64,000 nucleotides of DNA from Elusimicrobia bacterium GWA2_61_42 (GCA_001799615.1 MGTU01000008.1:194749-258748); one strand, 5' to 3'; positions 35,329 through 48,585 are shown, numbered from the stretch's first letter. Made by a program: numbers and translations. Notes: generated from the letters alone by a model not told the origin.

Positions 35329-36345
35329 ATGAAAACCCTGATGAAAACAACTTTGACCCTGGCGGCGGCGATAGCCATACTGCCCGCGCTCTCCTTCGCT
35401 GAAACCGGCAAAAGTATATACGGCGACGACAACCGCAAGGACTACTTCCAGATGAGCCCGCAGATGAAGGCCATCGCGGACTCGGTGGTCTCCTTCTGGA
35501 AAGCCGACTCCGTGGAAGCCCTGAACCCCGGCGGCGTAAAGCTTAAGACGATGAATTTCGGGGACCGCCTGAACCTGTGCCCGGATGAAAAGTTCCGCGA
35601 GCAGACCATAGGCGCTTTCTGCTCCGGCTCCCTGGTAGGCGAGGACCTGGTGATGACCGCCGGCCACTGCGTAAAGACCGAGGCCGACTGCCAGAATCTG
35701 AAAATGGTTTTCGGCTACAACGTGAAGACCGACGGCTCGGAAGCGACCACCACCATGGCGGCCAGCGAAGTCTACGGCTGCGCCAAGATAGTGAAACGCT
35801 TCCTGGGCGGCGAACCCGGCTCCAATAACCCGGCCGGCCAGGCCCTGGGCCCCGACTTCGCCCTGCTCAAGCTGGACCGCAAAGTGACCGGCCACAAACC
35901 CCTGGCCATTAACAGGGGCACCAACCTTAAGAAAGGCGACGGCATCTTCGTAATAGGCCACCCCGTCGGCCTGCCCGTAAAGCTGGCCGGCTTCGCCACC
36001 GTGCGCGACTTCTCCAAGGTAGGGTACTTCGTGGCGGACCTGGACACCTTCGGCGGCAACTCGGGCTCGCCGGTGTTCAACACCAGGACCCAGAAGATAG
36101 AAGGCATCCTGGTGCGCGGCGACGAGGACTTCATCGACAGCCCCGCCGGCTGCACCACCATGGCCACCTACGCCCAGACCGGCGGCCGCGGCGAGGACGT
36201 GACGAAGATCTCGGTCCTCTCCGCTTCCATCCCCAAGCTTCCCGGCGAGAAGGTGAACAAGGGCCTTGAAATGGAAGAAGCGGTAGACATGGATTCAAGC
36301 GCGATACAGGCCGAGATGCCCTCGAAATCGGTCAGCTTCGACTAA
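35329..36345 (+). CDS. Secreted trypsin-like (S1) serine protease, paralog A
   Basis: Signal peptide. Catalytic triad blocks MTAGHC (His), DFALLKLD (Asp) and GGNSGSPVF (Ser). Confidence 0.85.
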   Translation: MKTLMKTTLTLAAAIAILPALSFAETGKSIYGDDNRKDYFQMSPQMKAIADSVVSFWKADSVEALNPGGVKLKTMNFGDRLNLCPDEKFREQTIGAFCSGSLVGEDLVMTAGHCVKTEADCQNLKMVFGYNVKTDGSEATTTMAASEVYGCAKIVKRFLGGEPGSNNPAGQALGPDFALLKLDRKVTGHKPLAINRGTNLKKGDGIFVIGHPVGLPVKLAGFATVRDFSKVGYFVADLDTFGGNSGSPVFNTRTQKIEGILVRGDEDFIDSPAGCTTMATYAQTGGRGEDVTKISVLSASIPKLPGEKVNKGLEMEEAVDMDSSAIQAEMPSKSVSFD

Positions 36346-36442: not shown

Positions 36443-36805
36443 TTAACCTTCGCGGCGCACGGTTTCGAAAGAGAAGGCGGGCAGGCAGATGGCTATATAT
36501 TCCGCGCCTTCCGGGCCCGGCGTGGAATAGCGCACCCGCTCGCCCGGCTCCATGATAATGGCCTGGCCGCGGTTTACGTCGTAGGTCCCGGCCTGGGTTT
36601 CCACTTTAAGGGTGCCCCTGAGCACCAGGGTATACTCGGTGAAGCGGGGATTCTGGGGCGCCTCCTCCCAGCCGGCCGGGCTTACCATGCGCGCCACGCT
36701 GATGGTGGTGGTCTTGGAATTGACCCGCCCGATATATTCCTCGATGATCTTGGGCTTGTTGCCCGCGGCCTGCACTATAATAGGTTTTTCTATGAACTGA
36801 GCCAT
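36443..36805 (-). CDS. Cupin-domain protein
   Basis: 120 aa with a small beta-barrel pattern (ARMVSPAGWEEAPQNPRFTEYTLVLRGTLKVE...GQAIIMEPGERVRY). Confidence 0.7.
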   Translation of the reverse strand: MAQFIEKPIIVQAAGNKPKIIEEYIGRVNSKTTTISVARMVSPAGWEEAPQNPRFTEYTLVLRGTLKVETQAGTYDVNRGQAIIMEPGERVRYSTPGPEGAEYIAICLPAFSFETVRREG

Positions 36806-39468: not shown

Positions 39469-39497
39469 TTGCTTAACCGGAACCCATTTGTTAGAAT
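39469..39497 (+). promoter_or_regulatory. sigma70-like promoter TTGCTT-17-TAGAAT
   Basis: TTGCTT at 39469-39474 and TAGAAT at 39492-39497. It lies upstream of the SD GGAGG and the ATG at 39542. Confidence 0.55.
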
Positions 39498-39541
39498 TCT
39501 TCGATAGCGCTGGCGGTCAATATCTATCCAGGAGGCGGAAT

Positions 39542-40396
39542 ATGAATAAACGGATCTGGCTTACCTCTTTAGCGGCGGCACTGCTGCTCCCGGCACTGGT
39601 TTCCGGCGCTTACGCCGGCGCCCGCCCAAAGCTCAAGCTGCAAAAAGGCACCCAATCGGTGACCTCCGTCAATAATTCCTCCGTCTCCAATTCCTCCGGA
39701 AGCTGGAAAGGAGAAGCCGCCCACACCGGCGGCGCCGGCATAACCTTCGGGGGCAGCATGGCCCCGGCCACCGGGGGGTCCTACGGCAGCTCTTCCACAA
39801 AGGGCGGTTCCGCGTCCGGAGGAGGAGGGGGAAGCCAGGCCCAGACGTCGTCGTCCGGCTCCGGCTCGTCCAACCCGGGCACGTCAGGCGGCGGCGCGGT
39901 GAACCAGAAAGTCGTCTTCTCCTCTAAAAGGAACGGCGTTTCCGAGAAAAGTTTTTTAACCACCCAGCTTATCTACGGCGTGGTTTACGGCCTCGGCCCG
40001 AACAGCACCTACAGCTGCGCCTGCCCCAAGCTGAGCGGCGCCTGCGCCGACCGCGGCACCTGGACCAAGCTGCCCAACCCGGAGTGGTCTTACGACTCCA
40101 CCGACAAAACCTGGCGCATGGCGGCCGTGCTGAACGGCATCCCCGCAGGGTCTTACGAACTGGCCTTCGAAGACCGGGCCAGCGGCGCGCAGACCGGGTT
40201 CGCTTACCTCGACCTTACCAGCCCCCGCAGCGTCGGCTGCCGCTGGAACTCGCCTGACCCCGTGGTCGGGCCCTGCTCCGGGCCTTACGTCAACAACCGC
40301 CTGCTGGACTGCACCGCCAACAATAACGGGCAGGTTTTGAACACCCAGGACTCCGGCCAGAGCTGCCCGGCCAGGTGGACCTGCACCTGCGGTTAA
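39542..40396 (+). CDS. Secreted protein: signal peptide, Ser/Gly-rich linker, Cys-rich C-terminal domain
   Basis: MNKRIWLTSLAAALLLPALVSGAYA is preceded by GGAGG. A roughly 100-aa S/G/N low-complexity segment is followed by a domain with 10 Cys that ends CPARWTCTCG. No family recognised. Confidence 0.65.
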   Translation: MNKRIWLTSLAAALLLPALVSGAYAGARPKLKLQKGTQSVTSVNNSSVSNSSGSWKGEAAHTGGAGITFGGSMAPATGGSYGSSSTKGGSASGGGGGSQAQTSSSGSGSSNPGTSGGGAVNQKVVFSSKRNGVSEKSFLTTQLIYGVVYGLGPNSTYSCACPKLSGACADRGTWTKLPNPEWSYDSTDKTWRMAAVLNGIPAGSYELAFEDRASGAQTGFAYLDLTSPRSVGCRWNSPDPVVGPCSGPYVNNRLLDCTANNNGQVLNTQDSGQSCPARWTCTCG

Positions 40397-40407: not shown

Positions 40408-40440
40408 AGAAGGGGCGGGCCCGACGGCCCGCCCTCTTCT
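40408..40440. terminator. GC-rich hairpin between convergent transcription units
   Basis: AGAAGGGGCGGGCC cgac GGCCCGCCCTCTTCT. The minus-strand reading is followed by TTTTGG. Confidence 0.5.
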
Positions 40441-40553: not shown

Positions 40554-41237
40554 TTAAGCGCCGTGGACCTTGCCGTCGCGTATCTCCAGCAGGCGGTCGG
40601 CCGAACGGGCCAGGTCCAGGTTATGCGTCACCATCACCACCGTGATGCCCTGCCGCGCCAGCCCCCGAAGTATCCCCTTTATCTCCTCCGTTCTTTTGCT
40701 GTCCAGGCTCCCGGTCGGCTCGTCGGCGAGCAGGACCTTGGGGCCGTTGATCAGCGCCCGCGCTATCGCCACCCGCTGCATCTCGCCGCCGGAAAGCTCC
40801 CCCGGCAGATGCCCGCGGCGCTGGGCTATCCCCAGCAGCTTCATGACTTCATGGGCGTCCTTGGCTCCCGGGGCCCGGTAAAAAGCCCCGGGCAGCATTA
40901 TATTCTCTTCCACCGTCAGCGTCGGGATAAGGTAGAACTTCTGGAACACGTAGCCGAACATCTCCCTGCGGATAAGGGTCAGCTCCCGCTCCGACAGAGC
41001 CTTCTGCCCGCCGAAAATAGCCCGTCCCCCGACGCTAAGAGAACCGGAGCTGGGATTGTCCAGGCAGCCGATCAGGTTCAGCAGCGTAGTCTTGCCGGAG
41101 CCCGACGGCCCGATAATGGCCACCATCTCCCCTGCGGCGGCCTCGAAACTGACCCCGTCCACCGCCCGCACCTCTTCCGCGCCGCGCCGGTAGATCTTGC
41201 TCAGGTCCCCGGCGGAGATCACGATATCTTTAGCCAT
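40554..41237 (-). CDS. ABC transporter ATP-binding protein, LolD/MacB type
   Basis: Walker A GPSGSGKT, signature LSGGEMQR and Walker B LLADEPTG. Last gene of the Fur-headed operon. Confidence 0.93.
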   Translation of the reverse strand: MAKDIVISAGDLSKIYRRGAEEVRAVDGVSFEAAAGEMVAIIGPSGSGKTTLLNLIGCLDNPSSGSLSVGGRAIFGGQKALSERELTLIRREMFGYVFQKFYLIPTLTVEENIMLPGAFYRAPGAKDAHEVMKLLGIAQRRGHLPGELSGGEMQRVAIARALINGPKVLLADEPTGSLDSKRTEEIKGILRGLARQGITVVMVTHNLDLARSADRLLEIRDGKVHGA

Positions 41238-42427
41238 TATTGTTCTCCCTCTATGCGGATAGCCTCGAGCGGGCGCACCCGCGCCGCCCGCCAGGCGGGA
41301 TAAATGCCGCTCAGCAGCCCGCCCGCCGTTATCAGCAGGAATGCCGCGCCGCTGATGCCGAAGTCCAGGGCGATAAGCGCGCCGTTGGGCGCGTAGGGCA
41401 GGAAGTACCGCACCCCGGCTTCAGCCAGGCGCGCCGTCACGAAAGCCAGCCCTATGCCGGCCGCCCCGCCGAAGCCGCAGAGGAGGGCGGTCTCCATCCA
41501 GATCATCTTAAAAACGTCCAGCGGCATGGCGCCCATGCTCTTGATGATGCCGATCTCCGCGTAGCGCTCCATCACCGACATCAGTATGGTATTTATAACC
41601 CCGGCCATGGCTATGATAAGAGCTATGCCGGCAATGCCCATGACTATCACGCGCGCGCTGTTCACCAGGTTCATGATAGTGGTCTTCACCTGCGCCATGG
41701 AGACCACCTGCACGTCGGGCAGGTCATAGAGCTTGTTCTCGAAGGCGTTTATGTCCGCGTCCTTTTTTACCTTTATGCCCAGGCCGGTGATCAGCCCTTT
41801 CTTGTTGAAGAGCGCCTGCACCGCCGTGATGGGCAGGAAAATGGTGCCGTCGTCCTGCGTGCCCGAGCGTTTGAGCACGCCCACTACGGTGATCTCCTTT
41901 TCCACGCCGGGGATAAGAAGTTTGTCTCCCACTTCGCGGGTCTCCAGCTCGGCCGCCTCGTAGCCCAGCACGGCCTCCAGGGCGTTGTTGTCTTTGAACC
42001 AGCCGCCCTGCTTGAATTCCAGGTAGGCCTTCATGGGGGGATAACTTACGGCATCCACGCCCAGGTAAGCGGCTATGGCGCCGTTCTCGCCTTTGTCCGG
42101 GTCGAAAACCCCGTGCATCAGCATGGGCGTTACTTTCTCCACCTCGGGATTGGTGTAGACCGTCTTTACCACCGCCTCGGGCATATAGCGCAGCCCCGTG
42201 CCTCCCTTGAGCATCAGCGTCGCCGCCTCGTAAGGGCAGCCTTTGGCGGTGAGCAGCACCTGGAAGCCCATGTTGTCTATGTCGCGGTTGAGGCCCTGCT
42301 GGTAGCCTTTGTTGAAGCCGAGCAGCGTGGCGAGGACCCAGGCGGACAGCATTATGCCGCCGGCGGCCAGGGCGGTGCGGGTTTTCTTGCGCAGCAGGTT
42401 CTTATAGGCGATAGAATATACGTTCAT
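41237..42427 (-). CDS. ABC transporter permease, FtsX/MacB type with a large periplasmic domain
   Basis: 396 aa. TM1, then a periplasmic segment of about 220 aa, then three C-terminal TM segments (FtsX-like). Shares one base with the ATPase start. Confidence 0.88.
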   Translation of the reverse strand: MNVYSIAYKNLLRKKTRTALAAGGIMLSAWVLATLLGFNKGYQQGLNRDIDNMGFQVLLTAKGCPYEAATLMLKGGTGLRYMPEAVVKTVYTNPEVEKVTPMLMHGVFDPDKGENGAIAAYLGVDAVSYPPMKAYLEFKQGGWFKDNNALEAVLGYEAAELETREVGDKLLIPGVEKEITVVGVLKRSGTQDDGTIFLPITAVQALFNKKGLITGLGIKVKKDADINAFENKLYDLPDVQVVSMAQVKTTIMNLVNSARVIVMGIAGIALIIAMAGVINTILMSVMERYAEIGIIKSMGAMPLDVFKMIWMETALLCGFGGAAGIGLAFVTARLAEAGVRYFLPYAPNGALIALDFGISGAAFLLITAGGLLSGIYPAWRAARVRPLEAIRIEGEQ

Positions 42428-43041
42428 TTTTCCTTCTTTGAGAAGACGAACTCGTCGAGCAGTATGAGGTTCTTTTTCACGGCGCGCAGCACGGAGCCGA
42501 AATCTTTGCCGGCTTTAGCCGGGGCTTTTATCGCCGAGGCCCCGGCGGCCGGGGGGAGCTTCGCCAAAACCGGGTCGTAGGGTTCAAAATCCCTGAGCGC
42601 GAGGCCTTCGAATTGCGCGCCGAATTCTTTGGCGCGCAGGCCTTTGGCGGCGCGCGACGTGAGCTTCTGTATGTAAAAAGCCCTTATCACCCCCGCTTTA
42701 TCCAGGGCCAGGAAGACCTGTATCCCGCCGTACTCGCCCTTCTGATTGACGCCGTGGATGTAGCCCACTATCTCCTTGCCCTTATAGATGTCGTACAGGG
42801 TATAAGGAACGTCGATGGTCTCATAGAGACCCTTGAATTTATCGCCCAGCCGTTTCTCCACGCGCTCGAGCAGGGGCTGGCCGCCGGAGGTCTTAACCGA
42901 AAGATAACGGGTTTTGTACCCTGTGGAACCCGGAAAAAGCCGGGCCACGTCGCGGTCCGGATCGTTCAGGTCGCAGCCCACGGCCGCGAAGGCGGCTCTG
43001 GGAAGAGCCAGGAGGGTCAAAAGCAGAAATAGTTTTTTCAT
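42424..43041 (-). CDS. Exported FMN_bind-like domain protein (no flavinylation motif seen)
   Basis: Signal peptide MKKLFLLLTLLALPRAAFA. The core YIHGVNQKGEYGGIQVFLALDKAGVIRAFYIQKL resembles FMN_bind (GyGG.I.v.v..d..G.I). The domain call is tentative. Confidence 0.7.
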   Translation of the reverse strand: MKKLFLLLTLLALPRAAFAAVGCDLNDPDRDVARLFPGSTGYKTRYLSVKTSGGQPLLERVEKRLGDKFKGLYETIDVPYTLYDIYKGKEIVGYIHGVNQKGEYGGIQVFLALDKAGVIRAFYIQKLTSRAAKGLRAKEFGAQFEGLALRDFEPYDPVLAKLPPAAGASAIKAPAKAGKDFGSVLRAVKKNLILLDEFVFSKKEK

Positions 43042-43050
43042 AAGCGCCTT

Positions 43051-44028
43051 CTAGACGGGCAGGTAATAGTAGAGCTGGGTTACCGCCCTCTTGTCGTTCA
43101 TCCTGTCCTCGTATTCTAACAATGCCCGCCAGGTCAGGTCCGGGGTTAAGGCGTAGGAAAGCCCGGCGCCCAGCGCCCAGCCTTCCATAGCCTCCCTGCC
43201 TGAATAAACCGCCTGCCACTCCAGTTTAAGCCGGTTCTCTTCAAGGAGATTAAGCCCGAGGCGCCCCAGCCCGGCCAGGTAGCGCCTGCCGCGCATATTG
43301 CCGCCGCGCAGGTCCGCCCGCAGTTCCCAGCGGTCCCAGAGCAAAGCGTAATCCGCCCCGACGGCGCTGTAGGGCCTTTCCTCTCCGTCCAGCACCCTGT
43401 AGCCCGCCGTTTCGGGGACCTTGCCCAGGGAAGCGTAGACCCCGGCGGCATAATTGTCCCGGTTCAGAACCCCTTTTGCGGCGCGCCCGGAAACCAGGTA
43501 ACTGCCGGCGGAGCGCGGCCGCATGCCGGAACCGGTGGTCACCGAAAGAGCCGCGTCGCCCCACTCCAGGTCGCGGCTGGCGCCCAGTCCCCAGTCGCGG
43601 TCGAAACCATAGCCGTACATGGGCAGGGCCTGCAGCAGCGCCGCGTGCGCGTCGAAATAGGCTTCGAGCCCGGCGGCCGGCCGGTTATGCCCCAGCCACA
43701 AATAACCATAAGGGGTTTTGGCCCTGTAATAGGCGTTGTAAAGCTGCGGCTCCAGCCTGTTGGGGGCGTCGGGGTCATAAGCCAGGCGGCCCTGCAGGGC
43801 CAAAGCCCCGGTATCGCCCGAAGCCGAGGAGAATTTGCGCAGCAGGTCGAAACCCGCCGAAGACTTCTGCATGACCTCGCCCGGCGTCATGGAATGGTAG
43901 ATCGCCGACTTTTCCATGGAAGAGTAACCGGCCACGCCCTGGGCTTCCAGGTACAGCAACCCGGAGCCGGCAAAGACCGGGGCCGCCAGGCCCAGCAGGC
44001 TAAATACTAAAAAGGACTTTACCGGCAT
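43051..44028 (-). CDS. Porin-like outer-membrane beta-barrel protein
   Basis: Signal peptide MPVKSFLVFSLLGLAAPVFA. Repeated amphipathic alternating-residue strands rich in Y/G/L/A/R. No named family recognised. Confidence 0.65.
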   Translation of the reverse strand: MPVKSFLVFSLLGLAAPVFAGSGLLYLEAQGVAGYSSMEKSAIYHSMTPGEVMQKSSAGFDLLRKFSSASGDTGALALQGRLAYDPDAPNRLEPQLYNAYYRAKTPYGYLWLGHNRPAAGLEAYFDAHAALLQALPMYGYGFDRDWGLGASRDLEWGDAALSVTTGSGMRPRSAGSYLVSGRAAKGVLNRDNYAAGVYASLGKVPETAGYRVLDGEERPYSAVGADYALLWDRWELRADLRGGNMRGRRYLAGLGRLGLNLLEENRLKLEWQAVYSGREAMEGWALGAGLSYALTPDLTWRALLEYEDRMNDKRAVTQLYYYLPV

Positions 44029-44446
44029 AGATCTCCTTGTCGCCCTGTCTGACGCGTATGACCAGCTGCCATTCTCCCGGCATTACCACGTCCACCGGCA
44101 GCAGGTAATCGCCCTTCTTGCTGAGCTTGAACTTGACCGGGCCGGAATCGTGGTAGGGCATAGAAGGCATGCCGGACTCGCCGACTATTTCGGCGGTCTT
44201 TTCCCTGCGGCCGTCTTTGCCGAACAGCCGCACCTTGATGATAACGGTGCCCAGTTTGGGTTTATCGGCAAACTGCCAGGTAAACCAGCCGCCGCCAGGC
44301 AGCGGGTTCTTCTTTCCCTGGGAGGCCAGGGCCGTTGCGGCGGCGGCAGCGGGTTTGGCTTTCGGCAGCGCCTTGCCGGGCTCCGCCGCGCTCACGGCGC
44401 AGAACAGCAGCGGCAGGAGCACAAGGACGGACGGGATATTTTTCAT
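44000..44446 (-). CDS. Exported YtkA/FixH-like Ig-fold domain protein
   Basis: Signal peptide. The C-terminal half GTVIIKVRLFGKDG...GESGMPSMPYHDSGPVKF...GDYLLPVDVVMPGEWQLVIRV matches the YtkA-like pattern (MPxMxH...G.Y...mpG.W). ATGA overlap with the regulator stop. Confidence 0.7.
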   Translation of the reverse strand: MKNIPSVLVLLPLLFCAVSAAEPGKALPKAKPAAAAATALASQGKKNPLPGGGWFTWQFADKPKLGTVIIKVRLFGKDGRREKTAEIVGESGMPSMPYHDSGPVKFKLSKKGDYLLPVDVVMPGEWQLVIRVRQGDKEIYAGKVLFSI

Positions 44447-44898
44447 ATTTTACTCCTGTCTTTTTTAGCGCAGCGGGAACAGTTGCCATAAATATCCAGG
44501 CGGTAGCCCGAGGGGGAAAAACCGTGCCGGGCCGCCAGGCGGGCCTGCAGCCGCCCCATGGCCGGGTCCGAGATCTCCACGATAGCGCCGCAGGAAACAC
44601 AGACAAGATGGTCGTGGCGGGGCCCCGGGCCCGCCGCCTCGTAGACCGCCGGGCCGTCCGCGGGCTTCAGCTCGCGGGCCTTGCCGCAGCCGCAAAGGCA
44701 TTTAAGGGACCGGTAAACGGTGGCGATACCTATCCCCGGGCGTATTTTCCCGGCAAAGCGGTGCACCTCTTCCGCGCTCAGGTGGGGGCCGCCTTCGGAA
44801 AGAGCGCGCAGCACGGCCCCGCGGCGGCTGCTGCAGCGTTTGCCGGAGGAGCAGCCGCAGTCCGGGCCGCAGGAACAAGACTTAATGGTTTTAGTCAT
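44443..44898 (-). CDS. Fur-family metalloregulator with a Cys-rich N-terminal extension
   Basis: Fur-like core ...TVYRSL...HDHLVCVSCGAIVEI...CSRC. The N-terminus is MTKTIKSCSCGPDCGCSSGKRCSS. The track start (TTG 44946) is actually the promoter -35. ATG 44898 is preferred; ATGs at 44922 and 44916 lie inside the Fur box. Confidence 0.85.
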   Translation of the reverse strand: MTKTIKSCSCGPDCGCSSGKRCSSRRGAVLRALSEGGPHLSAEEVHRFAGKIRPGIGIATVYRSLKCLCGCGKARELKPADGPAVYEAAGPGPRHDHLVCVSCGAIVEISDPAMGRLQARLAARHGFSPSGYRLDIYGNCSRCAKKDRSKI

Positions 44899-44901
44899 AT
44901 T

Positions 44902-44920
44902 GATAATGGTTATCATTATC
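44902..44920 (-). promoter_or_regulatory. Fur box, 18/19 match to GATAATGATAATCATTATC
   Basis: The minus strand reads GATAATGATAACCATTATC. It overlaps the -10 TATGAT and ends 4 nt before ATG 44898. Confidence 0.85.
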
Positions 44921-44946
44921 ATACTACTGCCAGACCGCCGCGTCAA
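44918..44946 (-). promoter_or_regulatory. Promoter TTGACG-17-TATGAT of the Fur-headed operon
   Basis: On the minus strand, TTGACG is at 44946-44941, followed by a 17-nt spacer and TATGAT at 44923-44918. Confidence 0.75.
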
Positions 44947-44950
44947 GCAT

Positions 44951-44988
44951 AAAAAAAAGCCCCCGGCCTTTCGGGCGGGGGCTTTTTC
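44951..44988. terminator. Bidirectional intrinsic terminator (ends protease paralog B; insulates the fur promoter)
   Basis: AGCCCCCG...CGGGGGCT stem at 44958-44983, flanked by AAAAAAAA (44951-44958) and TTTTT (44983-44987). Confidence 0.8.
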
Positions 44989-45000
44989 GGGGCGGGCCGT

Positions 45001-45942
45001 TTACAGCGCGGCGGCGTCCTCAAGCAGGGAGAAGGCCGGGGCCGGTCGCGCCAGGGCGGCCGGGGCGGACCGAGAGAGCAGGCGCATGGGGGAGGTTACC
45101 GCCGTTATTTTGGTCACATCCTCTCCGCGGCAGCCTTCGGAGGGGCAGACGTTGGAAACGCGGCAATCGCCCTTGTACACATAGTCGTTCTCGCCGCGCA
45201 CCAGGATGCCTTCAACCTCGCCGGTTTTGGCGTTGAAGACGGCCGAGCCGGAATTGCCGCCGTAAGTGTCCAGGTTGGCCACGAAGTAGCCGGCGGGGGA
45301 AGCGTCCCGCACTGTAGCCCCGCCCGCTATCTTTACGGGCAGGCCGGCCGGGTGGCCTATGACCACCAGCGCGTCGCCGTTCTTTATGGTGCCCGCGTGG
45401 TTGACCTTAAGCACGGAATGATTGGAGACTTTCCTGTCCAGGCGGATCAGCGCCCAGTCGGCGCCGGTACCTACCTGCTCGCGGCCGATCAGTTCGGCGC
45501 AGCCGTAAACCTCGGAGGCGGGGACGGACTTGGGCATAGAGCCCGCGGCGCGGACGCCGAAGCCGAATACGAACCGGGTGTCCTTGCAGGCCTCTTCCGT
45601 TTTAACGCAGTGACCCGCGGTCATAATGATGTCGGGCGCCACCAGGGAACCGGAGCAGAACGCGCCCACGACCTGTTCGTAAAAAGGCTCCTCTTTGCAA
45701 AGCCCGTAAGACTGGCCGTAAGCCGAGGTGGTCAGCTTGGCGAGCTGGCCGGAGACGCTCACGTCGCCGTATTCGAAAAGGGCCACGGTGGAATCGGCCA
45801 GCTTCAGCAGGCGGGAGTCCGTGACCTGGAACAGGTCCAGGCGGTCATCCGCGCCGTACACTACTTTTCCCTTGATTTCGGCGGCGGAAACCGCGGCCGC
45901 GAGAGCCGCTATGGCGGCCGCTGACAGGATCAAATGTTTCAT
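45001..45942 (-). CDS. Secreted trypsin-like (S1) serine protease, paralog B
   Basis: Signal peptide MKHLILSAAAIAALAAAVSA. Catalytic blocks MTAGHC, DWALIRLD and GGNSGSAVF. Long identical blocks shared with the 35329-36345 product. Confidence 0.87.
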   Translation of the reverse strand: MKHLILSAAAIAALAAAVSAAEIKGKVVYGADDRLDLFQVTDSRLLKLADSTVALFEYGDVSVSGQLAKLTTSAYGQSYGLCKEEPFYEQVVGAFCSGSLVAPDIIMTAGHCVKTEEACKDTRFVFGFGVRAAGSMPKSVPASEVYGCAELIGREQVGTGADWALIRLDRKVSNHSVLKVNHAGTIKNGDALVVIGHPAGLPVKIAGGATVRDASPAGYFVANLDTYGGNSGSAVFNAKTGEVEGILVRGENDYVYKGDCRVSNVCPSEGCRGEDVTKITAVTSPMRLLSRSAPAALARPAPAFSLLEDAAAL

Positions 45943-45963
45943 GCGCTACCTCCGCTTACATAT

Positions 45964-45977
45964 TTGACGACAGTCAA
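45964..45977. promoter_or_regulatory. Perfect palindrome TTGAC-gaca-GTCAA in the divergent protease B / metal-binding-protein control region
   Basis: Read directly as TTGACGACAGTCAA. It lies 22 nt upstream of the protease B start codon and overlaps the predicted minus-strand transcription start. Confidence 0.6.
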
Positions 45978-45978
45978 C

Positions 45979-46031
45979 ATTACACTAATTAGCCCCGGGC
46001 TTTGCAAGGAATTTTTTTAAAGTGATATAAT
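45979..46031. promoter_or_regulatory. Back-to-back promoters sharing one self-complementary -35 hexamer, TTGCAA
   Basis: Plus strand: TTGCAA (46002-46007), 18-nt spacer, TATAAT (46026-46031). Minus strand: TTGCAA (the same bases), 17-nt spacer, TGTAAT (45984-45979). Confidence 0.55.
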
Positions 46032-46078
46032 CTACTTCTGACGCCAATACGACCGACAGAACTGGAGCCTGCTGTATT

Positions 46079-46666
46079 ATGAAAAAACTTATCTATTCCT
46101 TACTCGTCCTTTCACTTTCCGCCGGCGCGGCTTTCGCAACGGATGCCCCGGCCGGGCCGGCTAAAAAAGCGGCCGCCGCCAAGCACGATTGCGGAGGCTG
46201 CCCTATGGCCAAAAAAGCCAGCGCCAAGAAGTGCTCGGGCAAGATGTGCCCGGAGAAGATCGCCGGCGTAGAGACCTCGGCCAGAAATATCCCCAACGGC
46301 GTGGAGATAACCATGACGGCCCAAAACAAGGAAACCGTGGCGCAGCTTCAGGAGCTGGCCCTGGTGCATTACGGCAGCAAGGAGACCATGGACCCCGCCT
46401 GCCCCGGCCGCGTCCCCGGCACCGAGATAAAACTTGAGAACACCGCCGAAGGCGCGCGGGTAACGATGACCGGCAAGACCCCGGAAGTCATAAAGAAGAT
46501 CCAGGCCGCCTCCGCCAAAGAGCATTTAAAAACCGGCTGCCCCGACAAGGACGGCCATAAAAAAGAAGCGAAGGCTTCCAAAAAGTACGCCTGCCCCATG
46601 AACTGCGCCCAGTCCGACAGCCCCGGCAAATGCCCCAAATGCGGCATGCCCATGGAGAAAAAATAA
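46079..46666 (+). CDS. Exported Cys-rich metal-binding protein with a C-terminal HMBD-type motif
   Basis: Signal peptide. N-terminal HDCGGCPMAKKASAKKCSGKMCPEK. Two internal repeats (GVEITMTAQNKETVAQLQ / GARVTMTGKTPEVIKKIQ). The C-terminal YACPMNCAQSDSPGKCPKCGMPMEKK matches the heavy-metal-binding domain pattern YxCPMHP...PGxCPxCGMxL. Confidence 0.75.
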   Translation: MKKLIYSLLVLSLSAGAAFATDAPAGPAKKAAAAKHDCGGCPMAKKASAKKCSGKMCPEKIAGVETSARNIPNGVEITMTAQNKETVAQLQELALVHYGSKETMDPACPGRVPGTEIKLENTAEGARVTMTGKTPEVIKKIQAASAKEHLKTGCPDKDGHKKEAKASKKYACPMNCAQSDSPGKCPKCGMPMEKK

Positions 46667-47338
46667 ATGATGACCAGCGCACTCAAGAAAGTCCCTTTCT
46701 TCAAGGGACTCAGCCAGCGGGAGATAAACCAGGTGCTCGCCATCGCCGGCGTCAAGAACTACCGAGCCGGCGAGATGGTCTTCGCCAAGCAGGACCTGGG
46801 CGACAACTTCTTCGTGGTCAAATCCGGCCGCATCAAGATCTTCACTACCGTAGGCTCCGAGAAGAAAAAAACTTTCGCCTTCCTCAAGAAGGGGGACTTC
46901 TTCGGCGAAATGTCGCTGCTGGGCGGCAAGGTGCGCTCCGCCTCGGCCCAGGCCACCGAAGCCAGCGAACTGTTCGTGATCTCCAAGAAGAACTTCACCG
47001 GCCTGATACTGGAGAACGAGGATTTCACGCTTAAGCTGCTGCACACGCTGGTGGAGCGCCTCAACAAAGCCAACAAAGAAGTGGAATCCATGCTGTTCCA
47101 CAATATCCTGGGCCGGCTGGCCGAGGCCATACTCGACCTGTCGCAGGACAAGAAAACCAAGCCCCTTAAAATGGCCATAGACCAGACCGAGCTGGCGCAG
47201 TACCTGGGCACCACGCGCGTGCCGGTCTGCCGCGCCATCAACACGCTCAAACGCAGCGGCGTGATAGACTACCGCCGCGGAGAGCTGGTGATCCTGAACC
47301 AGACCCGGCTGAAATCCATCGCCGGCAACGCCGAATGA
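46667..47338 (+). CDS. Crp/Fnr-family transcriptional regulator (cNMP-binding domain + HTH)
   Basis: 223 aa. FFKGLSQREINQV...GDFFGEMSLLGG...RSASAQA cNMP-binding pattern and a C-terminal HTH (QTELAQYLGTTRVPVCRAINTLKRSG). No FNR-type N-terminal Cys cluster. Confidence 0.88.
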   Translation: MMTSALKKVPFFKGLSQREINQVLAIAGVKNYRAGEMVFAKQDLGDNFFVVKSGRIKIFTTVGSEKKKTFAFLKKGDFFGEMSLLGGKVRSASAQATEASELFVISKKNFTGLILENEDFTLKLLHTLVERLNKANKEVESMLFHNILGRLAEAILDLSQDKKTKPLKMAIDQTELAQYLGTTRVPVCRAINTLKRSGVIDYRRGELVILNQTRLKSIAGNAE

Positions 47339-48585
47339 GCCTGCATTCGCTGAGGGGCTTCCGGGACCTGCTTCCGCCTGACTCCGCGCTTTTCACCTCC
47401 ATAGAGGCCGCGGCGCGGGAAGTGTTCGCGCTTTACGGCTACCAGGAGCTGCGCGTTCCCACCATCGAACTTAAAGAGCTGTTCGTTAAAGCCACCGGCG
47501 ATACCACCGACATAGTGGAAAAAGAGATGTACGCCTTTACAGACGGCGGCGGCCGCGAAGTGGCCGTGCGCCCCGAGGGTACCCCCGGCGTGGTGCGGGC
47601 CTACATCGAGAACAACCTCGGCCAGACCGGCCGCAACGGCAAATACTTTTATATCGGCAACATGTTCAGGGCCGAGCGCCCCCAGGCAGGCCGCTACCGC
47701 GAATTCGAGCAGATAGGCGCCGAACAGATCGGCAACGCCTCCCCTTACGCCGACGCCGAGACCATAACCATGCTGGTGCGCCTGCTGGAGAAAGCCGGCG
47801 TCAGCGGCTGTTCCGTGGTGCTGAACTCGCTGGGCTGCGGCGAGTGCCGCAAAGCCTACCGCGAAACGCTGTTGAACTACCTGCGCCTCAACACGGCGAC
47901 GCTCTGCGAGCCCTGCAAAGGCCGCATAGAGCGCAACCCGATGCGGGCCCTCGACTGCAAGATCGACGGCCCCGTCCTGGCCGAAAAAGCGCCCAGACTT
48001 TCCCTGTGCCCCGCCTGCGCCGGGCATTTCTCCCGCACGCAGGAACTGCTGAATATTTCCGGGGTCGAGTACCAGGTCAACACCAGCCTGGTGCGCGGGC
48101 TGGATTATTACACCAGCACCGTCTTCGAGGTGCGCTCCAGCGCGCTGGGCAGCCAGGACGCCGTCTGCGGCGGCGGCCGTTACGACGACCTGGTGAAATC
48201 CATGGGCGGCCCCGCGGCCGCCGCCATAGGCTGGGCCGTAGGCGTGGACCGCATGGCCATGCTGCTCAAAGACAAGCCAGCCGCCGAGAACGCGCCGAAA
48301 ACCTTCATAGTGGCCGCGGCCAAGGAGGCCGGCACCAAAGCCTTCGCCCTGCTGACCGCCATGCGCGCCGCCGGCATCAGCTCCGACTTCTCCAACTTCG
48401 AGCTCAGCCTCAAGTCCCAGATGCGCTCCGCCGACAAAAGCGGCGCCGCGTTCGCCCTGATCATAGGAGAGGACGAGCTCAAAGCCGGCACGGTCGCCGT
48501 AAAGCTCCTGAAAGAAAAAGGAGAACAGCTCTCCGTCGCGATAGCCGACGCCCCTTCGGAAATAAGCAAAAGGCTTTCCGCTTAG
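47335..48585 (+). CDS. hisS: Histidine--tRNA ligase
   Basis: 416 aa. LRGFRDLLPPDS...YRYEFEQ-type class II motifs (here RYREFEQIGAE). ATGA overlap with the regulator stop. Confidence 0.94.
   Translation: MSLHSLRGFRDLLPPDSALFTSIEAAAREVFALYGYQELRVPTIELKELFVKATGDTTDIVEKEMYAFTDGGGREVAVRPEGTPGVVRAYIENNLGQTGRNGKYFYIGNMFRAERPQAGRYREFEQIGAEQIGNASPYADAETITMLVRLLEKAGVSGCSVVLNSLGCGECRKAYRETLLNYLRLNTATLCEPCKGRIERNPMRALDCKIDGPVLAEKAPRLSLCPACAGHFSRTQELLNISGVEYQVNTSLVRGLDYYTSTVFEVRSSALGSQDAVCGGGRYDDLVKSMGGPAAAAIGWAVGVDRMAMLLKDKPAAENAPKTFIVAAAKEAGTKAFALLTAMRAAGISSDFSNFELSLKSQMRSADKSGAAFALIIGEDELKAGTVAVKLLKEKGEQLSVAIADAPSEISKRLSA

Follow-up and report, generated by a model that had tools for sequence, protein, structure and literature searches.

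Classical MacAB-TolC pumps couple the type VII ABC transporter MacB to the adaptor MacA and the duct TolC. CrdA (HP1326) of the H. pylori crdAB-czcBA copper resistance system, functionally the CusF of CusCFBA, has a proposed role as periplasmic Cu(I)/Ag(I) chaperone supplying an envelope efflux pump. Its crystal structure holds bound Ag (PMC9182242). FtsX-type ABC transporters occur together with FMN_bind or thioredoxin partners in the iron-limitation-induced P19/FTR1 clusters of B. breve (sifABCDE) and C. jejuni (fetMP-fetABCDEF), where a copper-containing Ig-fold protein, the ABC transporter and the redox partner are needed at low iron; sifABCDE encodes SifE as its FMN_bind protein, alongside an ATPase and two FtsX permeases (PMC5449479, PMC10783030, PMC8238504). 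NosDFY-NosL likewise combines an ABC ATPase/permease pair with periplasmic Cu(I) chaperones.

The locus analysed here lies in a 64-kb stretch of DNA (the window) and had been put forward in a first-pass annotation as the best candidate for an undescribed system, matching no nameable metal-transport architecture. Literature searches gave no published description of the module and found no metal-handling member of the type VII (MacB/LolCDE/FtsEX) ABC class, but sifABCDE and fetMP-fetABCDEF, which the annotation did not name, provide a partial precedent.

Operon layout and Fur-box promoter

By ORF reading of the window, six tightly packed genes occupy 40554-44898 on the minus strand. They are listed below with the associated signals, from the 5' to the 3' end.

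44972-44954, strong hairpin at the end of the upstream protease gene
44918-44946, minus strand, sigma-70-like promoter, TTGACG-17-TATGAT, 10/12 match
44946-44941, minus strand, promoter -35 hexamer TTGACG, followed by a 17-nt spacer and the -10 hexamer
44923-44918, minus strand, promoter -10 hexamer TATGAT
44902-44920, minus strand, Fur box GATAATGATAACCATTATC, 18/19 versus consensus, coding strand
44443-44898, minus strand, Fur-family regulator (fur), 151 aa, PF01475 E 1e-23
44511-44496, minus strand, weak terminator-like site inside the operon, from the consensus scan
44000-44446, minus strand, exported YtkA/CrdA-like Ig-fold protein (ytkA), 148 aa, CrdA profile and fold match
43051-44028, minus strand, exported 325-aa protein, predicted outer-membrane beta-barrel of undefined family
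42424-43041, minus strand, exported 205-aa protein with RnfG/NqrC (FMN_bind) fold, from AF2 and Foldseek
41237-42427, minus strand, FtsX/MacB-type (type VII ABC) permease (ftsX), 396 aa, PF12704 E 2e-18 and PF02687 E 2e-14
41044-41024, minus strand, weak terminator-like site inside the operon, from the consensus scan
40554-41237, minus strand, MacB/LolD-type ABC ATPase (abc), 227 aa, PF00005 E 2e-32
40413-40434, minus strand, terminator-like hairpin with 9 G-C pairs, ~120 nt 3' of abc

All six ORFs called at first pass are present, with the junctions reported there: an ATGA overlap between fur and ytkA (44443-44446), a 29-nt overlap between ytkA and the barrel gene (44000-44028), a 9-nt gap between the latter and the 205-aa gene (43042-43050), a 4-nt overlap between the 205-aa gene and ftsX (42424-42427) and a single base shared by ftsX and abc (41237). 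This close packing, together with one promoter overlapped by the Fur box, backs the proposal of one transcription unit with a Fur box at its front. The accompanying claim that hairpins occur only outside the block held for the strong ones, but two weak terminator-like sites lie within it; the hairpin at 40413-40434 is likely the 3' end of the unit. As the annotation had also noted, the operon encodes no TonB receptor, SBP, FeoB, FTR1, CDF or P-type ATPase.

The initially assigned fur start (TTG 44946) is the -35 hexamer and gives an over-extended ORF. Because the Fur box would fall inside this longer ORF, and because an ATG lies within ~5 nt of the box in all nine orthologous loci, the true start is almost certainly ATG 44898, giving 151 aa. 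A TTGACA-N17-TAxxAT arrangement is likewise found 5' of fur in the orthologous loci. The core of the Fur box has the 7-1-7 form TGATAAC-C-ATTATCA, and the box overlaps both the likely transcription start and the -10 hexamer. No other site in the window reaches 15 of 19 matches to the Fur consensus; the runner-up, an unrelated site, reached 14/19, and the maximum in five shuffles was 12-13 matches.

The regulator itself carries a Cys-rich N-terminal tail (CSCGPDCGC), a K-C-L-C-G-C-G-K motif after the recognition helix that is invariant in 10 orthologues and, as judged by eye, a Cys4 zinc site and the S2-type ligands H39/E87/H95/H97/E108. NCBIfam models ranked it Fur above PerR above Zur, with every match below cut-off, and the nearest solved structures were S. 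coelicolor Zur, M. tuberculosis FurB and C. jejuni Fur.

Components and their described counterparts

The Pfam matches expected for the regulator (PF01475), permease (PF12704 and PF02687) and ATPase (PF00005) were all obtained, and Pfam, NCBIfam and fold evidence supports the initial inventory of a Fur regulator, an exported barrel, a MacB/FtsX permease and a LolD/MacB-type ATPase.

CrdA came out on top for the 148-aa protein in both sequence and fold comparisons. A profile search matched PDB 9ll2 (H. pylori CrdA) at E 4e-4, and Foldseek with the AF2 model (pLDDT 87) placed CrdA with and without Ag on top (E 4e-5), followed by FetP/P19/FtrA (E ~1e-3, TM 0.41-0.48) and PmoD. This comparison bears out the description as an exported YtkA-like Ig-fold protein, while the anticipated PF13115 was matched below threshold only, as was PF05751 (the Pfam YtkA and FixH families; E 0.0035 and 0.0095). 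Like CrdA, the window protein is an exported Ig-like beta-sandwich that combines a Met-rich loop (MPxM) with a distal Met: the GMPSM loop of the window protein aligns with the MPGM loop of CrdA, and M122 faces a Met in the C-terminal strand of CrdA. The latter is presumably Met99 of the CrdA paper (PMC9182242). Residues M93, M96, H99 and M122 were invariant in 65 orthologues; P94 and W126 are invariant too. In contrast to these likenesses, identity with CrdA is only ~18-19%, the invariant His is absent from CrdA, the window protein is paired with a MacB-type ABC system instead of an RND/MFP/OMF pump, and regulation is by Fur (CsoR in relatives) instead of CrdRS. The 148-aa protein is predicted to be a periplasmic Cu(I)/Ag(I) chaperone, the same role as proposed for CrdA.

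For the 325-aa barrel, single-sequence Pfam searches gave weak matches only (Porin_2 and OMP_b-brl, with FadL/TodX in 4 of 16 members) and a PDB sequence search gave none. Its invariant residues include M53, H114, H128 and D145-W146, M169 is nearly invariant, and the C-terminus reads QLYYYxxx.

The AF2 model of the 205-aa protein (pLDDT 88) retrieved RnfG/NqrC structures as all of its top 18 Foldseek matches (E 6e-5 to 5e-3, TM ~0.5, probability ~1.0). The expected PF04205 was not found, a Pfam search with this protein giving no match, and NCBIfam rnfG (TIGR01947) reached E 0.068 only; the FMN_bind likeness holds at the fold level only. Although the fold is common to RnfG/NqrC/NosR-type FMN_bind domains, the S/T-G-A-T flavinylation motif is absent, as observed at first pass, and its expected place is taken, by eye, by the invariant D180-F181. 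Further differences from these domains are a conserved N-terminal Cys and the lack of ApbE, Rnf or Nqr genes linked to the module. This Cys23 is nearly invariant and lies 2-4 residues past the signal-peptide cleavage site (motif AVGCDLNDPDRD). The protein is predicted to be a periplasmic adaptor or metal relay.

The permease resembles MacB in having a MacB_PCD periplasmic domain after TM1 and an FtsX C-terminal TM bundle, and it aligns over its full length with A. baumannii MacB 5gko (E 7e-18). Its large periplasmic domain contains the motif A61-K-G-C64-P-Y-E-A-A-T70, invariant in 75 orthologues; this GCPYEAA Cys motif is not present in MacB, where Cys64 faces an Arg. The ATPase is MacB/LolD-like (Walker A GPSGSGKT, signature LSGGEMQR, Walker B LLADEPT), its best NCBIfam matches being the MacB NBD, LolD, DarD and FtsE, all below equivalog cut-offs. 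Given this MacB-like permease and ATPase, the module is expected to work from the periplasmic side, powered by cytoplasmic ATP hydrolysis. Unlike in MacAB-TolC, the NBD is a separate polypeptide, and neither a MacA/HlyD-type adaptor nor a TolC-type duct is present in the operon or recurs in 80 relatives; the FMN_bind-fold protein, the 325-aa barrel and the CrdA-like protein are found instead. The three components that face the periplasm (the YtkA-like protein, the 205-aa protein and the permease) and the barrel all carry invariant soft ligands, a point in favour of the copper-type efflux considered below.

Conservation and regulatory context in relatives

The 205-aa gene turned up in 432 species genomes in a motif scan. 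The order ytkA-barrel-205aa-ftsX-abc was kept in about 75 of the best 80 loci, which span more than 10 phyla, many of them anaerobic, and no further neighbour was conserved across phyla among these loci. The gene set is thus strongly syntenic in relatives, and the possibility raised at first pass that it is syntenic in none does not apply. The conserved unit consists of five genes, encoding the YtkA-like protein, the barrel, the FMN_bind-fold protein, the FtsX/MacB permease and the ABC ATPase, and this module is widely conserved and apparently undescribed.

The regulator is not part of this unit. Among the best 80 loci, fur and its box were joined to the module in nine, every one Elusimicrobial, and no Fur box was seen outside these nine. 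The boxes occupied the same place in all of them, with 16-19 of 19 matches (18-19 in seven loci). Two of the nine (L007 and L017) had a second Fur-box cluster 3' of fur, ahead of an extra exported protein and of a weak, sub-threshold DUF4405 membrane-protein match (E 0.019), both preceding ytkA. With fur linkage limited to this lineage, the earlier label of a Fur-gated six-gene system fits the lineage but not the system, whose conserved genes number five.

Most of the best 80 loci had no adjacent regulator, which counts against copper efflux. In three loci (two Endomicrobia, from the same phylum as the window, L033 and L038, and one Cloacimonadota, L065) the module is preceded, at a distance of 20 bp, by a same-strand gene for a CsoR-family repressor that bears the C-H-C Cu(I) signature; this signature fits some Ni sensors too, which likewise tells against copper. 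NosL, a Cu(I) chaperone family, directly adjoins the module in L051, L069 and L082; in L071 it lies ~3.8 kb downstream, and in L053 NosL and the YtkA-like domain form a fusion.

A sister module, with a homologous barrel (hhalign 98.3%, E 1e-14), 205-aa protein, FtsX permease with a GCPxEAA motif (kept as EGCPxEAA) and ATPase, lies behind ArsR/SmtB regulators, both on a mine-tailing plasmid and in metal-resistance islands, which also carry CusB/CzcB, OEP, P1B-ATPase, MerT-thioredoxin and Metal_resist genes. Small Cys-motif proteins take the place of the Met-rich protein in this family, which is linked to ArsR with ELCVCD-type motifs, ArsP_1, MerT-thioredoxin and DsbD_N.

Upstream of the operon, the window contains two further genes.

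46079-46666, plus strand, exported Cys-rich protein with C-terminal heavy-metal-binding domain, PF19335 HMBD E 1e-6
46667-47338, plus strand, Crp/Fnr-family regulator, directly after the HMBD gene

These genes recur upstream of the module in Elusimicrobial loci, mostly in divergent orientation (HMBD gene in 17, Crp gene in 18), and the pair lies 58-181 bp upstream of ytkA in six fur-less loci (L005, L011-L013, L015 and L016). Both neighbours may be functionally linked to the module.

Proposed Cu(I)-type efflux and the alternatives

Gene order, families, folds, conserved residues, synteny and regulatory contexts were computed; substrate, transport direction and relay order we infer from them. 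The first-pass annotation had left substrate and direction open. The CrdA-like Met/His site, CsoR regulators in other lineages, NosL adjacency or fusion, and ArsR-controlled sister modules favour export of a Cu(I)-type thiophilic metal over iron acquisition. The permease and ATPase are also of the MacB/LolCDE type, which counts for efflux, since this class exports or extracts and is not known to include an importer, and the lineage-conserved exported HMBD/Cys-rich neighbour points to metal efflux as well. We put the probability that the five-gene module is an ATP-driven efflux system for Cu(I)-type thiophilic metals, working without a MacA or TolC partner, at roughly one half. The operon lacks a MacA-like adaptor or TolC-like duct that would couple a MacB-type motor to a small barrel, which weighs on the other side.

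An unlikely alternative, though the best placed, is that the module serves as a Fur-derepressed aid to uptake of iron or an iron chelate, as in the P19/FetP-FTR1 systems. A Fur box classically signals induction by iron starvation, not copper, so the canonical box (18/19) and Fur-family gene ahead of the operon, kept in nine relatives and doubled by the second Fur-box cluster between fur and ytkA in L007/L017, speak for iron and against copper efflux. The iron-uptake proteins FetP/P19/FtrA, next after CrdA in Foldseek, point the same way. The two kinds of system have in common iron-limitation or Fur control, an Ig-fold periplasmic metal protein and an FtsX-type ABC transporter combined with an FMN_bind-fold or thioredoxin partner; such FtsX/FMN_bind combinations in iron-limitation-induced clusters also count against copper efflux (PMC5449479, PMC10783030), with B. 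breve sifABCDE and C. jejuni fetBCD induced by or needed under iron limitation (PMC5449479, PMC10783030, PMC8238504). However, the operon has no FTR1/FetM permease, FetA/SifA-like membrane protein or thioredoxin, none of which recurs in the best 80 loci, and it has one permease gene instead of two, an FMN_bind-fold protein lacking both flavinylation motif and PF04205 match, and a predicted outer-membrane barrel. Pfam P19 (PF10634) was unmatched, and the invariant Met3His site is of the Cu(I)/Ag(I) type, not the Fe type. Fur linkage is confined to 9 of 80 loci, CsoR occurs in other lineages and ArsR in the resistance islands of the sister family, and import is not known for MacB-type ABC systems.

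Somewhat more doubtful is copper trafficking, whereby the ABC mechanotransducer would load Cu(I) from YtkA-like/NosL chaperones onto an envelope client, comparable to NosDFY-NosL metallating nitrous oxide reductase, or, in a variant, acquire copper via the barrel. NosL-family genes near, adjacent to or fused with the module in five relatives agree with this, and NosL adjacency fits copper delivery as well as removal. The 205-aa protein is folded like the FMN_bind domain, which also occurs in NosR, and B. subtilis YtkA (CtaK) is reportedly a copper chaperone for cytochrome oxidase assembly. MacB/FtsX-type systems include pure mechanotransducers such as FtsEX (PMC6355983). On the other hand, the module has neither NosD nor a NosZ client, and none of the 80 loci linked a cuproenzyme gene to it. 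Strict anaerobes, for which little demand for copper is known, make up most of the hosts. Its permease is of the FtsX/MacB type, whereas NosY belongs to a different ABC permease family. CsoR and ArsR/SmtB repressors, the detoxification-type regulators found in relatives, normally govern detoxification genes turned on by excess metal, and sister modules sit in resistance islands and on a mine-tailing plasmid.

It is improbable that the same machine handles another soft metal or metalloid (Zn, Cd, Hg, Ni, As) or a metal-thiolate/sulfide complex, as the Cys-motif proteins, ELCVCD-type ArsR, ArsP_1, MerT-thioredoxin and DsbD_N of the sister family and the proximity of the Fur paralogue to actinobacterial Zur among solved structures would suggest. 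The accessory protein of the window type has a Met3His site and is homologous to CrdA, and sites of this kind, as in CusF, CopC and PcoC, are selective for Cu(I)/Ag(I); the CsoR C-H-C regulators and NosL favour copper, and the operator is Fur-type, not Zur-type. Least probable is that the module extracts or exports a lipoprotein, lipid, peptide or small metabolite (e.g. flavin or chelator) in the manner of LolCDE or MacB, the metal contexts being incidental, since, despite top scores of ATPase and permease to MacB, LolD/LolCE, DarD and bacteriocin exporters, an FMN_bind fold that could accommodate a non-covalent ligand and a lipobox-like Cys23 context (AVGC) in the close subfamily, this Cys lies outside a lipobox in distant members (preceding residue V, L, I or S), five independent metal contexts recur (CrdA homology, CsoR, NosL, ArsR islands and the HMBD neighbour) and biosynthetic genes were linked in none of the 80 loci.

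Under Cu(I)-type efflux, the module would take Cu+, and probably also Ag+, off the periplasm or the inner-membrane surface and move it out of the cell. The CrdA-like protein would bind the ion at Met93/Met96/His99/Met122 and pass it to a thiolate of the FMN_bind-fold protein (Cys23, at its mature N-terminus), of the permease (Cys64, in its periplasmic domain) or of both. ATP hydrolysis by the ABC ATPase would drive a MacB-type mechanotransmission movement of that domain, with the 325-aa barrel as the outer-membrane exit, so that the FMN_bind-fold protein and the barrel would stand in for MacA and TolC. In this Elusimicrobium and those closest to it, a gene for a Fur-family repressor has been put ahead of the module, and the whole unit would be autoregulated from one Fur-box promoter; loss of metal from the repressor, classically under iron limitation, should therefore raise expression.

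Operon layout and the Fur-family regulator

All six minus-strand ORFs of the operon (fur, ytkA, barrel, a gene for a 205-aa protein, ftsX and abc) were present exactly as described in the first-pass annotation, and the observed layout of the block was confirmed with two small corrections. The proposed fur start, TTG 44946, coincides with the -35 hexamer; translation almost certainly begins at ATG 44898 instead, since in nine of nine orthologous loci the same box is followed by an ATG within ~5 nt. Hairpins had been reported only outside the block, but two weak terminator-like matches lie inside the operon. No RNA elements were found in or near it in an Rfam search.

Features of the operon and its surroundings (window coordinates)
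35329-36345, plus strand: apparent paralogous trypsin-like protease gene, exported, judged from its N-terminal sequence
36443-36805, minus strand: small protein gene, N-terminal likeness only to a 140-aa protein of relatives
39488-40396, plus strand: convergent neighbour, exported 302-aa protein, Ser/Gly-rich over a long region and Cys-rich in its C-terminal part
40434-40413, minus strand: strong closing hairpin, likely end of the unit
41237, minus strand: ftsX/abc junction, one base in common
42424-42427, minus strand: 205-aa/ftsX junction, 4-nt overlap
43042-43050, minus strand: barrel/205-aa junction, 9-nt gap
44000-44028, minus strand: ytkA/barrel junction, 29-nt overlap
44443-44446, minus strand: fur/ytkA junction, ATGA overlap
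44920-44902, minus strand: Fur box GATAATGATAACCATTATC, 18/19 versus the classical Fur box, holding the Fur-type 7-1-7 core
44946-44918, minus strand: promoter TTGACG-17-TATGAT
44972-44954: terminator-like hairpin of the trypsin-like protease gene, upstream of the operon
45001-45942, minus strand: trypsin-like serine protease gene, exported, Pfam-confirmed, flanked by the fur promoter and the HMBD gene
46079-47338, plus strand: exported Cys-rich protein ending in a heavy-metal-binding domain (HMBD), then a Crp/Fnr-family regulator

The Fur box, whose 7-1-7 core reads TGATAAC-C-ATTATCA against the consensus TGATAAT-N-ATTATCA, overlaps the promoter and was the only site of at least 15/19 in the 64-kb window, five shuffles reaching a maximum of 12-13. 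A single Fur-box promoter is predicted to control fur and the five genes behind it in this genome, which classically predicts derepression at low iron; such a response could be sensible because Cu(I) damages iron-sulfur enzymes. Among the flanking genes, the 302-aa convergent neighbour matched no Pfam or NCBIfam family, and six further Elusimicrobial loci have a protease gene similar to that at 45001-45942 on the downstream side of the module. In 12 Elusimicrobial relatives the gene for the 140-aa protein comes immediately after the module; the gene at 36443-36805 lies ~3.7 kb from the module, with alpha/beta hydrolase and Ser/Gly-rich genes in between.

The regulator belongs to the Fur family as anticipated (PF01475, E 1e-23) and its C-terminal Cys4 zinc site (C100/C103/C140/C143) is invariant, while every score against the NCBIfam equivalogs fell below cut-off and the closest solved relatives were Zur, FurB and Fur. 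Its N-terminus (44799-44898) has a tail rich in Cys, reading CSCGPDCGC in the window and CDCGCGPGCGC in the module-linked paralogue of another locus (L021). Just past the DNA-recognition helix, the module-linked paralogues carry an invariant K-C-L-C-G-C-G-K (codons 66-73 from ATG 44898, 44680-44703) where canonical Fur and Zur have L-x-x-A-G. These extra Cys residues could be ligands of a soft metal or of an Fe-S cluster. With such a tail and motif, and with Zur, FurB and Fur as the closest solved relatives, the paralogue may alternatively sense a signal that is not iron.

Within the best 80 loci, fur adjoins the module in nine only, all of them Elusimicrobial, and all nine have a Fur box of 16-19/19 right before fur (18-19 in seven). 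Upstream of the module in the loci lacking fur, Fur boxes were at background level (<=13/19) bar one AT-rich 14/19 site, so Fur control is not general to the module. The earlier description "Fur-gated" is therefore true of the window but for the module at large denotes a lineage-specific add-on. In two relatives (L007, 3232-4700; L017, 5351 onwards) fur is followed by a second set of overlapping Fur boxes (15-17/19). Two extra genes stand between these boxes and ytkA, one for an exported protein of 266 aa and one for a small membrane protein whose DUF4405 match is weak and below threshold (E 0.019), so that in these relatives Fur seems to have targets beyond the module. As a candidate operator, the motif AATTATATAAATT, which recurs upstream in Elusimicrobial loci, was rejected; it appears to be the -10 region of the promoter that serves the divergent HMBD gene.

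The five-gene module and its products

The six-gene unit holds as an operon in the window, but the conserved unit consists of the five genes ytkA-barrel-205aa-ftsX-abc, whose order is kept in ~75 of the best 80 loci. The 80 loci are spread over Elusimicrobiota, Desulfobacterota including cable bacteria, Spirochaetota, Cloacimonadota, Aminicenantes, Krumholzibacteriota, Acidobacteriota, Verrucomicrobiota, Chitinivibrionia, Geobacteraceae and others. A motif scan with one genome per species placed the 205-aa gene in 432 genomes, a lower bound biased to close relatives as the scan used the closer alignment A1. In four loci ytkA stands behind abc (L035, L048, L054 and L073, from Chitinivibrionia, UBP1, a Krumholzibacteriia genome and, for L073, an unclassified MAG). 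No further neighbour is kept across phyla in the best 80 loci; synteny with HisRS, the Crp regulator, the HMBD protein and a cupin is local to Elusimicrobia. The cable bacterium Candidatus Electronema sp. JM has an additional gene between the 205-aa gene and ftsX (L037, 8783-10165), whose exported 460-aa product has a CAACH haem-c motif and an outer-membrane-protein-like C-terminus, and a gap of similar size to this insertion is present in L040.

The 148-aa product of ytkA has an Ig-like beta-sandwich fold homologous to CrdA/YtkA. Its matches to YtkA (E 0.0035) and FixH (E 0.0095) were both below the Pfam threshold, and a profile search of the PDB returned one solved match, H. pylori CrdA (9ll2, E 3.9e-4), deposited as 'copper resistance protein'. 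The AlphaFold model (pLDDT 87) gave CrdA with and without Ag (9ll4/9ll2) as best Foldseek matches (E 4e-5, TMt 0.70), followed at ~1e-3 by FetP/P19/FtrA and PmoD, the P19/FetP likeness being at fold level only. Both a Met-rich Cu(I) loop (MxxMPGM-like) and a distal Met are present: G-M93-P-S-M96-x-x-H99, M122 and W126 are invariant in 65 orthologues. Met3His sites, as in CusF, CopC and PcoC, bind Cu(I)/Ag(I), and by this site the protein is a predicted Cu(I)/Ag(I)-binding protein. In the alignment, the GMPSMxxH loop falls onto the CrdA Met-rich loop and M122 opposite the Met of the CrdA C-terminal strand, which by alignment and with residue numbers unmapped is taken to be Met99 of PMC9182242.

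For the 205-aa protein, the earlier label "FMN_bind-like without flavinylation" was borne out at fold level, the 18 best PDB matches of its AlphaFold model (38 homologues, pLDDT 88; Foldseek) all being RnfG or NqrC, but PF04205 was not matched. No Pfam match was obtained at E <=0.1; rnfG scored E 0.068. The S/T-G-A-T flavinylation motif is absent from the sequence and from the family alignment, where an invariant D180-F181, judged by eye, takes its place, and neither the operon nor the scanned neighbours encode an ApbE-like product. Throughout the family a nearly invariant Cys lies 2-4 residues past the signal-peptide cleavage site (Cys23 in the window); a family-wide role for it as lipoprotein Cys was rejected, as distant members carry V, L, I or S at -1. 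At 90% identity the family comprises ~3,000 clusters, none of them named, and at 50% identity only 266 clusters among 1.8 billion proteins. Six distant members (P0161, P0162, P0164, P0170, P0183 and P0199) carry a Pfam-confirmed C-terminal fusion to DUF3179, for which no solved relative and no informative literature were found, and P0140 and P0153 contain two tandem copies of the 205-aa domain.

The domains expected of the permease and the ATPase were all recovered. In the permease, TM1 and TM2 enclose a MacB-like periplasmic core domain (PF12704, MacB_PCD, E 1.9e-18, residues 18-233), which is followed by the FtsX C-terminal TM domain (PF02687, E 2e-14, residues 265-384); the alignment to A. 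baumannii MacB (5gko, E 7e-18) spans the full length of the permease. The permease carries an invariant periplasmic AKGC64PYEAAT motif, which MacB lacks. The cognate MacB/LolD-like ATPase (PF00005, ABC_tran, E 2.4e-32) has Walker A, signature and Walker B visible in the translation, and its best named relatives are the MacB NBD model (218 bits) and LolD (199 bits), both below the equivalog cut-offs. In the predicted 325-aa barrel M53, H114 and H128 are invariant and M169 nearly so; Pfam gave weak porin, OMP_b-brl and FadL matches, and the PDB no match by sequence search.

The module is not a MacAB-TolC, LolCDE, P19/FTR1 or Cus-type RND system. It is set apart from the MacAB-TolC pump by adaptor and duct alike: no MacA/HlyD (MFP) match occurred among the six operon products and four scanned flanking products, no extra neighbour was recurrent in the best 80 loci, and the barrel has no PF02321 (TolC/OEP) match, although TolC may be encoded elsewhere in the genome. 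Scores against LolCDE stayed below equivalog level (lolCE TIGR02212, 66 bits versus a cut-off of 362; LolD, 199.5 versus 307.75). An FTR1 permease and PF10634 P19 were unmatched in the operon and not recurrent in the best 80 loci, and CusCFBA-type RND, MFP and OMF genes were absent from the operon and the scanned flanks.

Metal-related neighbours and sister modules

Three relatives, two Endomicrobia from the phylum of the window genome and one member of the Cloacimonadota, encode a CsoR-family repressor (PF02583, E 1e-24 to 1e-30) 20 bp upstream of the module on the same strand; the repressor carries the C-H-C Cu(I) fingerprint. A NosL-family gene (PF05573) directly adjoins the module in three relatives and lies ~3.8 kb downstream in a fourth. 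NosL is also fused to a YtkA-like domain: in L053, a locus of another genome, one ORF (2064-2909) has an N-terminal NosL domain and a C-terminal YtkA/CrdA-like domain with the Met/His motif kept, and is by its predicted domains a fusion link between two copper-chaperone families. The HMBD/Crp pair stands beside the module in 17-18 Elusimicrobial loci, mostly divergently, including six fur-less loci (L005, L011-L013, L015 and L016) in which it is divergent and 58-181 bp from ytkA; in the window the protease gene separates the pair from the module. A P-type ATPase beside the module in L078 was considered as a copper pump and rejected, being a P2-type cation ATPase instead.

A tblastn search of plasmids revealed a sister module in Massilia putida, carried by a plasmid from wolfram-mine tailings (L085; NZ_CP019036.1, record 43373-47973), with the order ArsR/SmtB, barrel-like, 205-aa homologue (ADVCVWRDP), small protein, FtsX (STEGCPMEAA), ABC and DsbD_N. 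Four further sister modules (L086-L089) follow ArsR-type regulators, which Pfam confirmed in three of them. The sister-module barrels are homologous to the window barrel (hhalign 98.3%, E 1e-14), and small exported Cys-motif proteins (e.g. GVCADDGC) occur instead of the Met-rich protein, which hints at thiol-based handling of other soft metals. Companions vary (DsbD_N, DUF302, ArsP_1, P-type ATPase, MerT-thioredoxin, LGT), and the four modules lie in metal-resistance islands encoding CusB/CzcB with HMBD, OEP, P1B-ATPase, ArsP_1, MerR, MerT-thioredoxin, DUF302 and Metal_resist; the CusB/OEP pair beside L086 is a separate system.

Proposed copper efflux and its alternatives

The first-pass annotation had proposed a metal-responsive trans-envelope module and left substrate and direction open, an interpretation that is partly supported and can be sharpened to a five-gene module proposed to remove Cu(I)-type soft metals. 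On computational grounds we consider the module to be a Cu(I)/Ag(I)-type envelope efflux system with a probability of about one half. Removal from the envelope is favoured by the CrdA homology and Met3His site, the CsoR and NosL links, the sister modules, the HMBD neighbour and the class of the motor. ABC systems of the MacB/LolCDE type act from the periplasmic side as exporters or extractors, and none is known to import. In the proposed mechanism, the CrdA-like protein would capture Cu(I)/Ag(I) and pass it to Cys23 of the FMN_bind-fold protein and/or Cys64 in the periplasmic domain of the permease, whereupon ATP-driven mechanotransmission would expel the ion towards the barrel, with the FMN_bind-fold protein and the barrel standing in for the absent MacA and TolC.

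The main competing explanation, iron acquisition, draws on the Fur box before the operon, the weaker P19/FetP fold matches and precedents in which FtsX-type ABC genes with FMN_bind/thioredoxin partners are needed at low iron, namely sifABCDE of B. breve (PMC5449479) and fetMP-fetABCDEF of C. jejuni (PMC10783030; PMC8238504), the role of the ABC genes being unknown in both. We regard it as less probable, as FTR1/FetM, FetA/SifA and thioredoxin are all missing from the operon, the metal site is a Cu(I)-type one, few loci have a linked fur and the module occurs elsewhere in CsoR and ArsR contexts. Copper delivery in the manner of NosDFY-NosL would fit the NosL links but comes without a client enzyme. 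Minor alternatives are that the cargo is some other soft metal or not a metal at all.

The Cu(I)-type efflux reading can be extended to a joint one, which we consider improbable, in which the module is the first type VII ABC metal efflux machine and the module-linked Fur a non-iron, Cu(I)-responsive repressor. A flavin-less FMN_bind-fold protein and a small barrel would then stand where MacA and TolC otherwise serve as adaptor and duct, the metal would move over Met, Cys and Cys ligands in turn, and the Cu(I)-responsive Fur paralogue of Elusimicrobiaceae could still use the canonical Fur box.

Copper is especially toxic in the absence of oxygen, because Cu(I) attacks iron-sulfur enzymes and oxidase-based defences cannot work, and to our knowledge periplasmic copper clearance is poorly known for most strict anaerobes. 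We found no description of the five-gene architecture and no metal-handling type VII ABC system in the literature, nor was any occurrence of FtsX or MacB listed for two copper-homeostasis reviews (PMC7558416, PMC9470648); we class the partner set and the predicted substrate class as new and the motor class as known. A compact, horizontally mobile, ABC-driven module present in hundreds of anaerobic species could be a missing route of copper clearance. If true, MacB/FtsX motors would handle metals and work without MacA or TolC, and a function would be gained for the CrdA-like YtkA branch, the flavin-less FMN_bind-fold family and the barrel, along with a handle on the unexplained FtsX-type ABC genes of P19/FTR1 iron clusters. 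The attachment of Fur to the module offers a testable case of either iron-copper cross-regulation or a Fur-family protein with a new effector.
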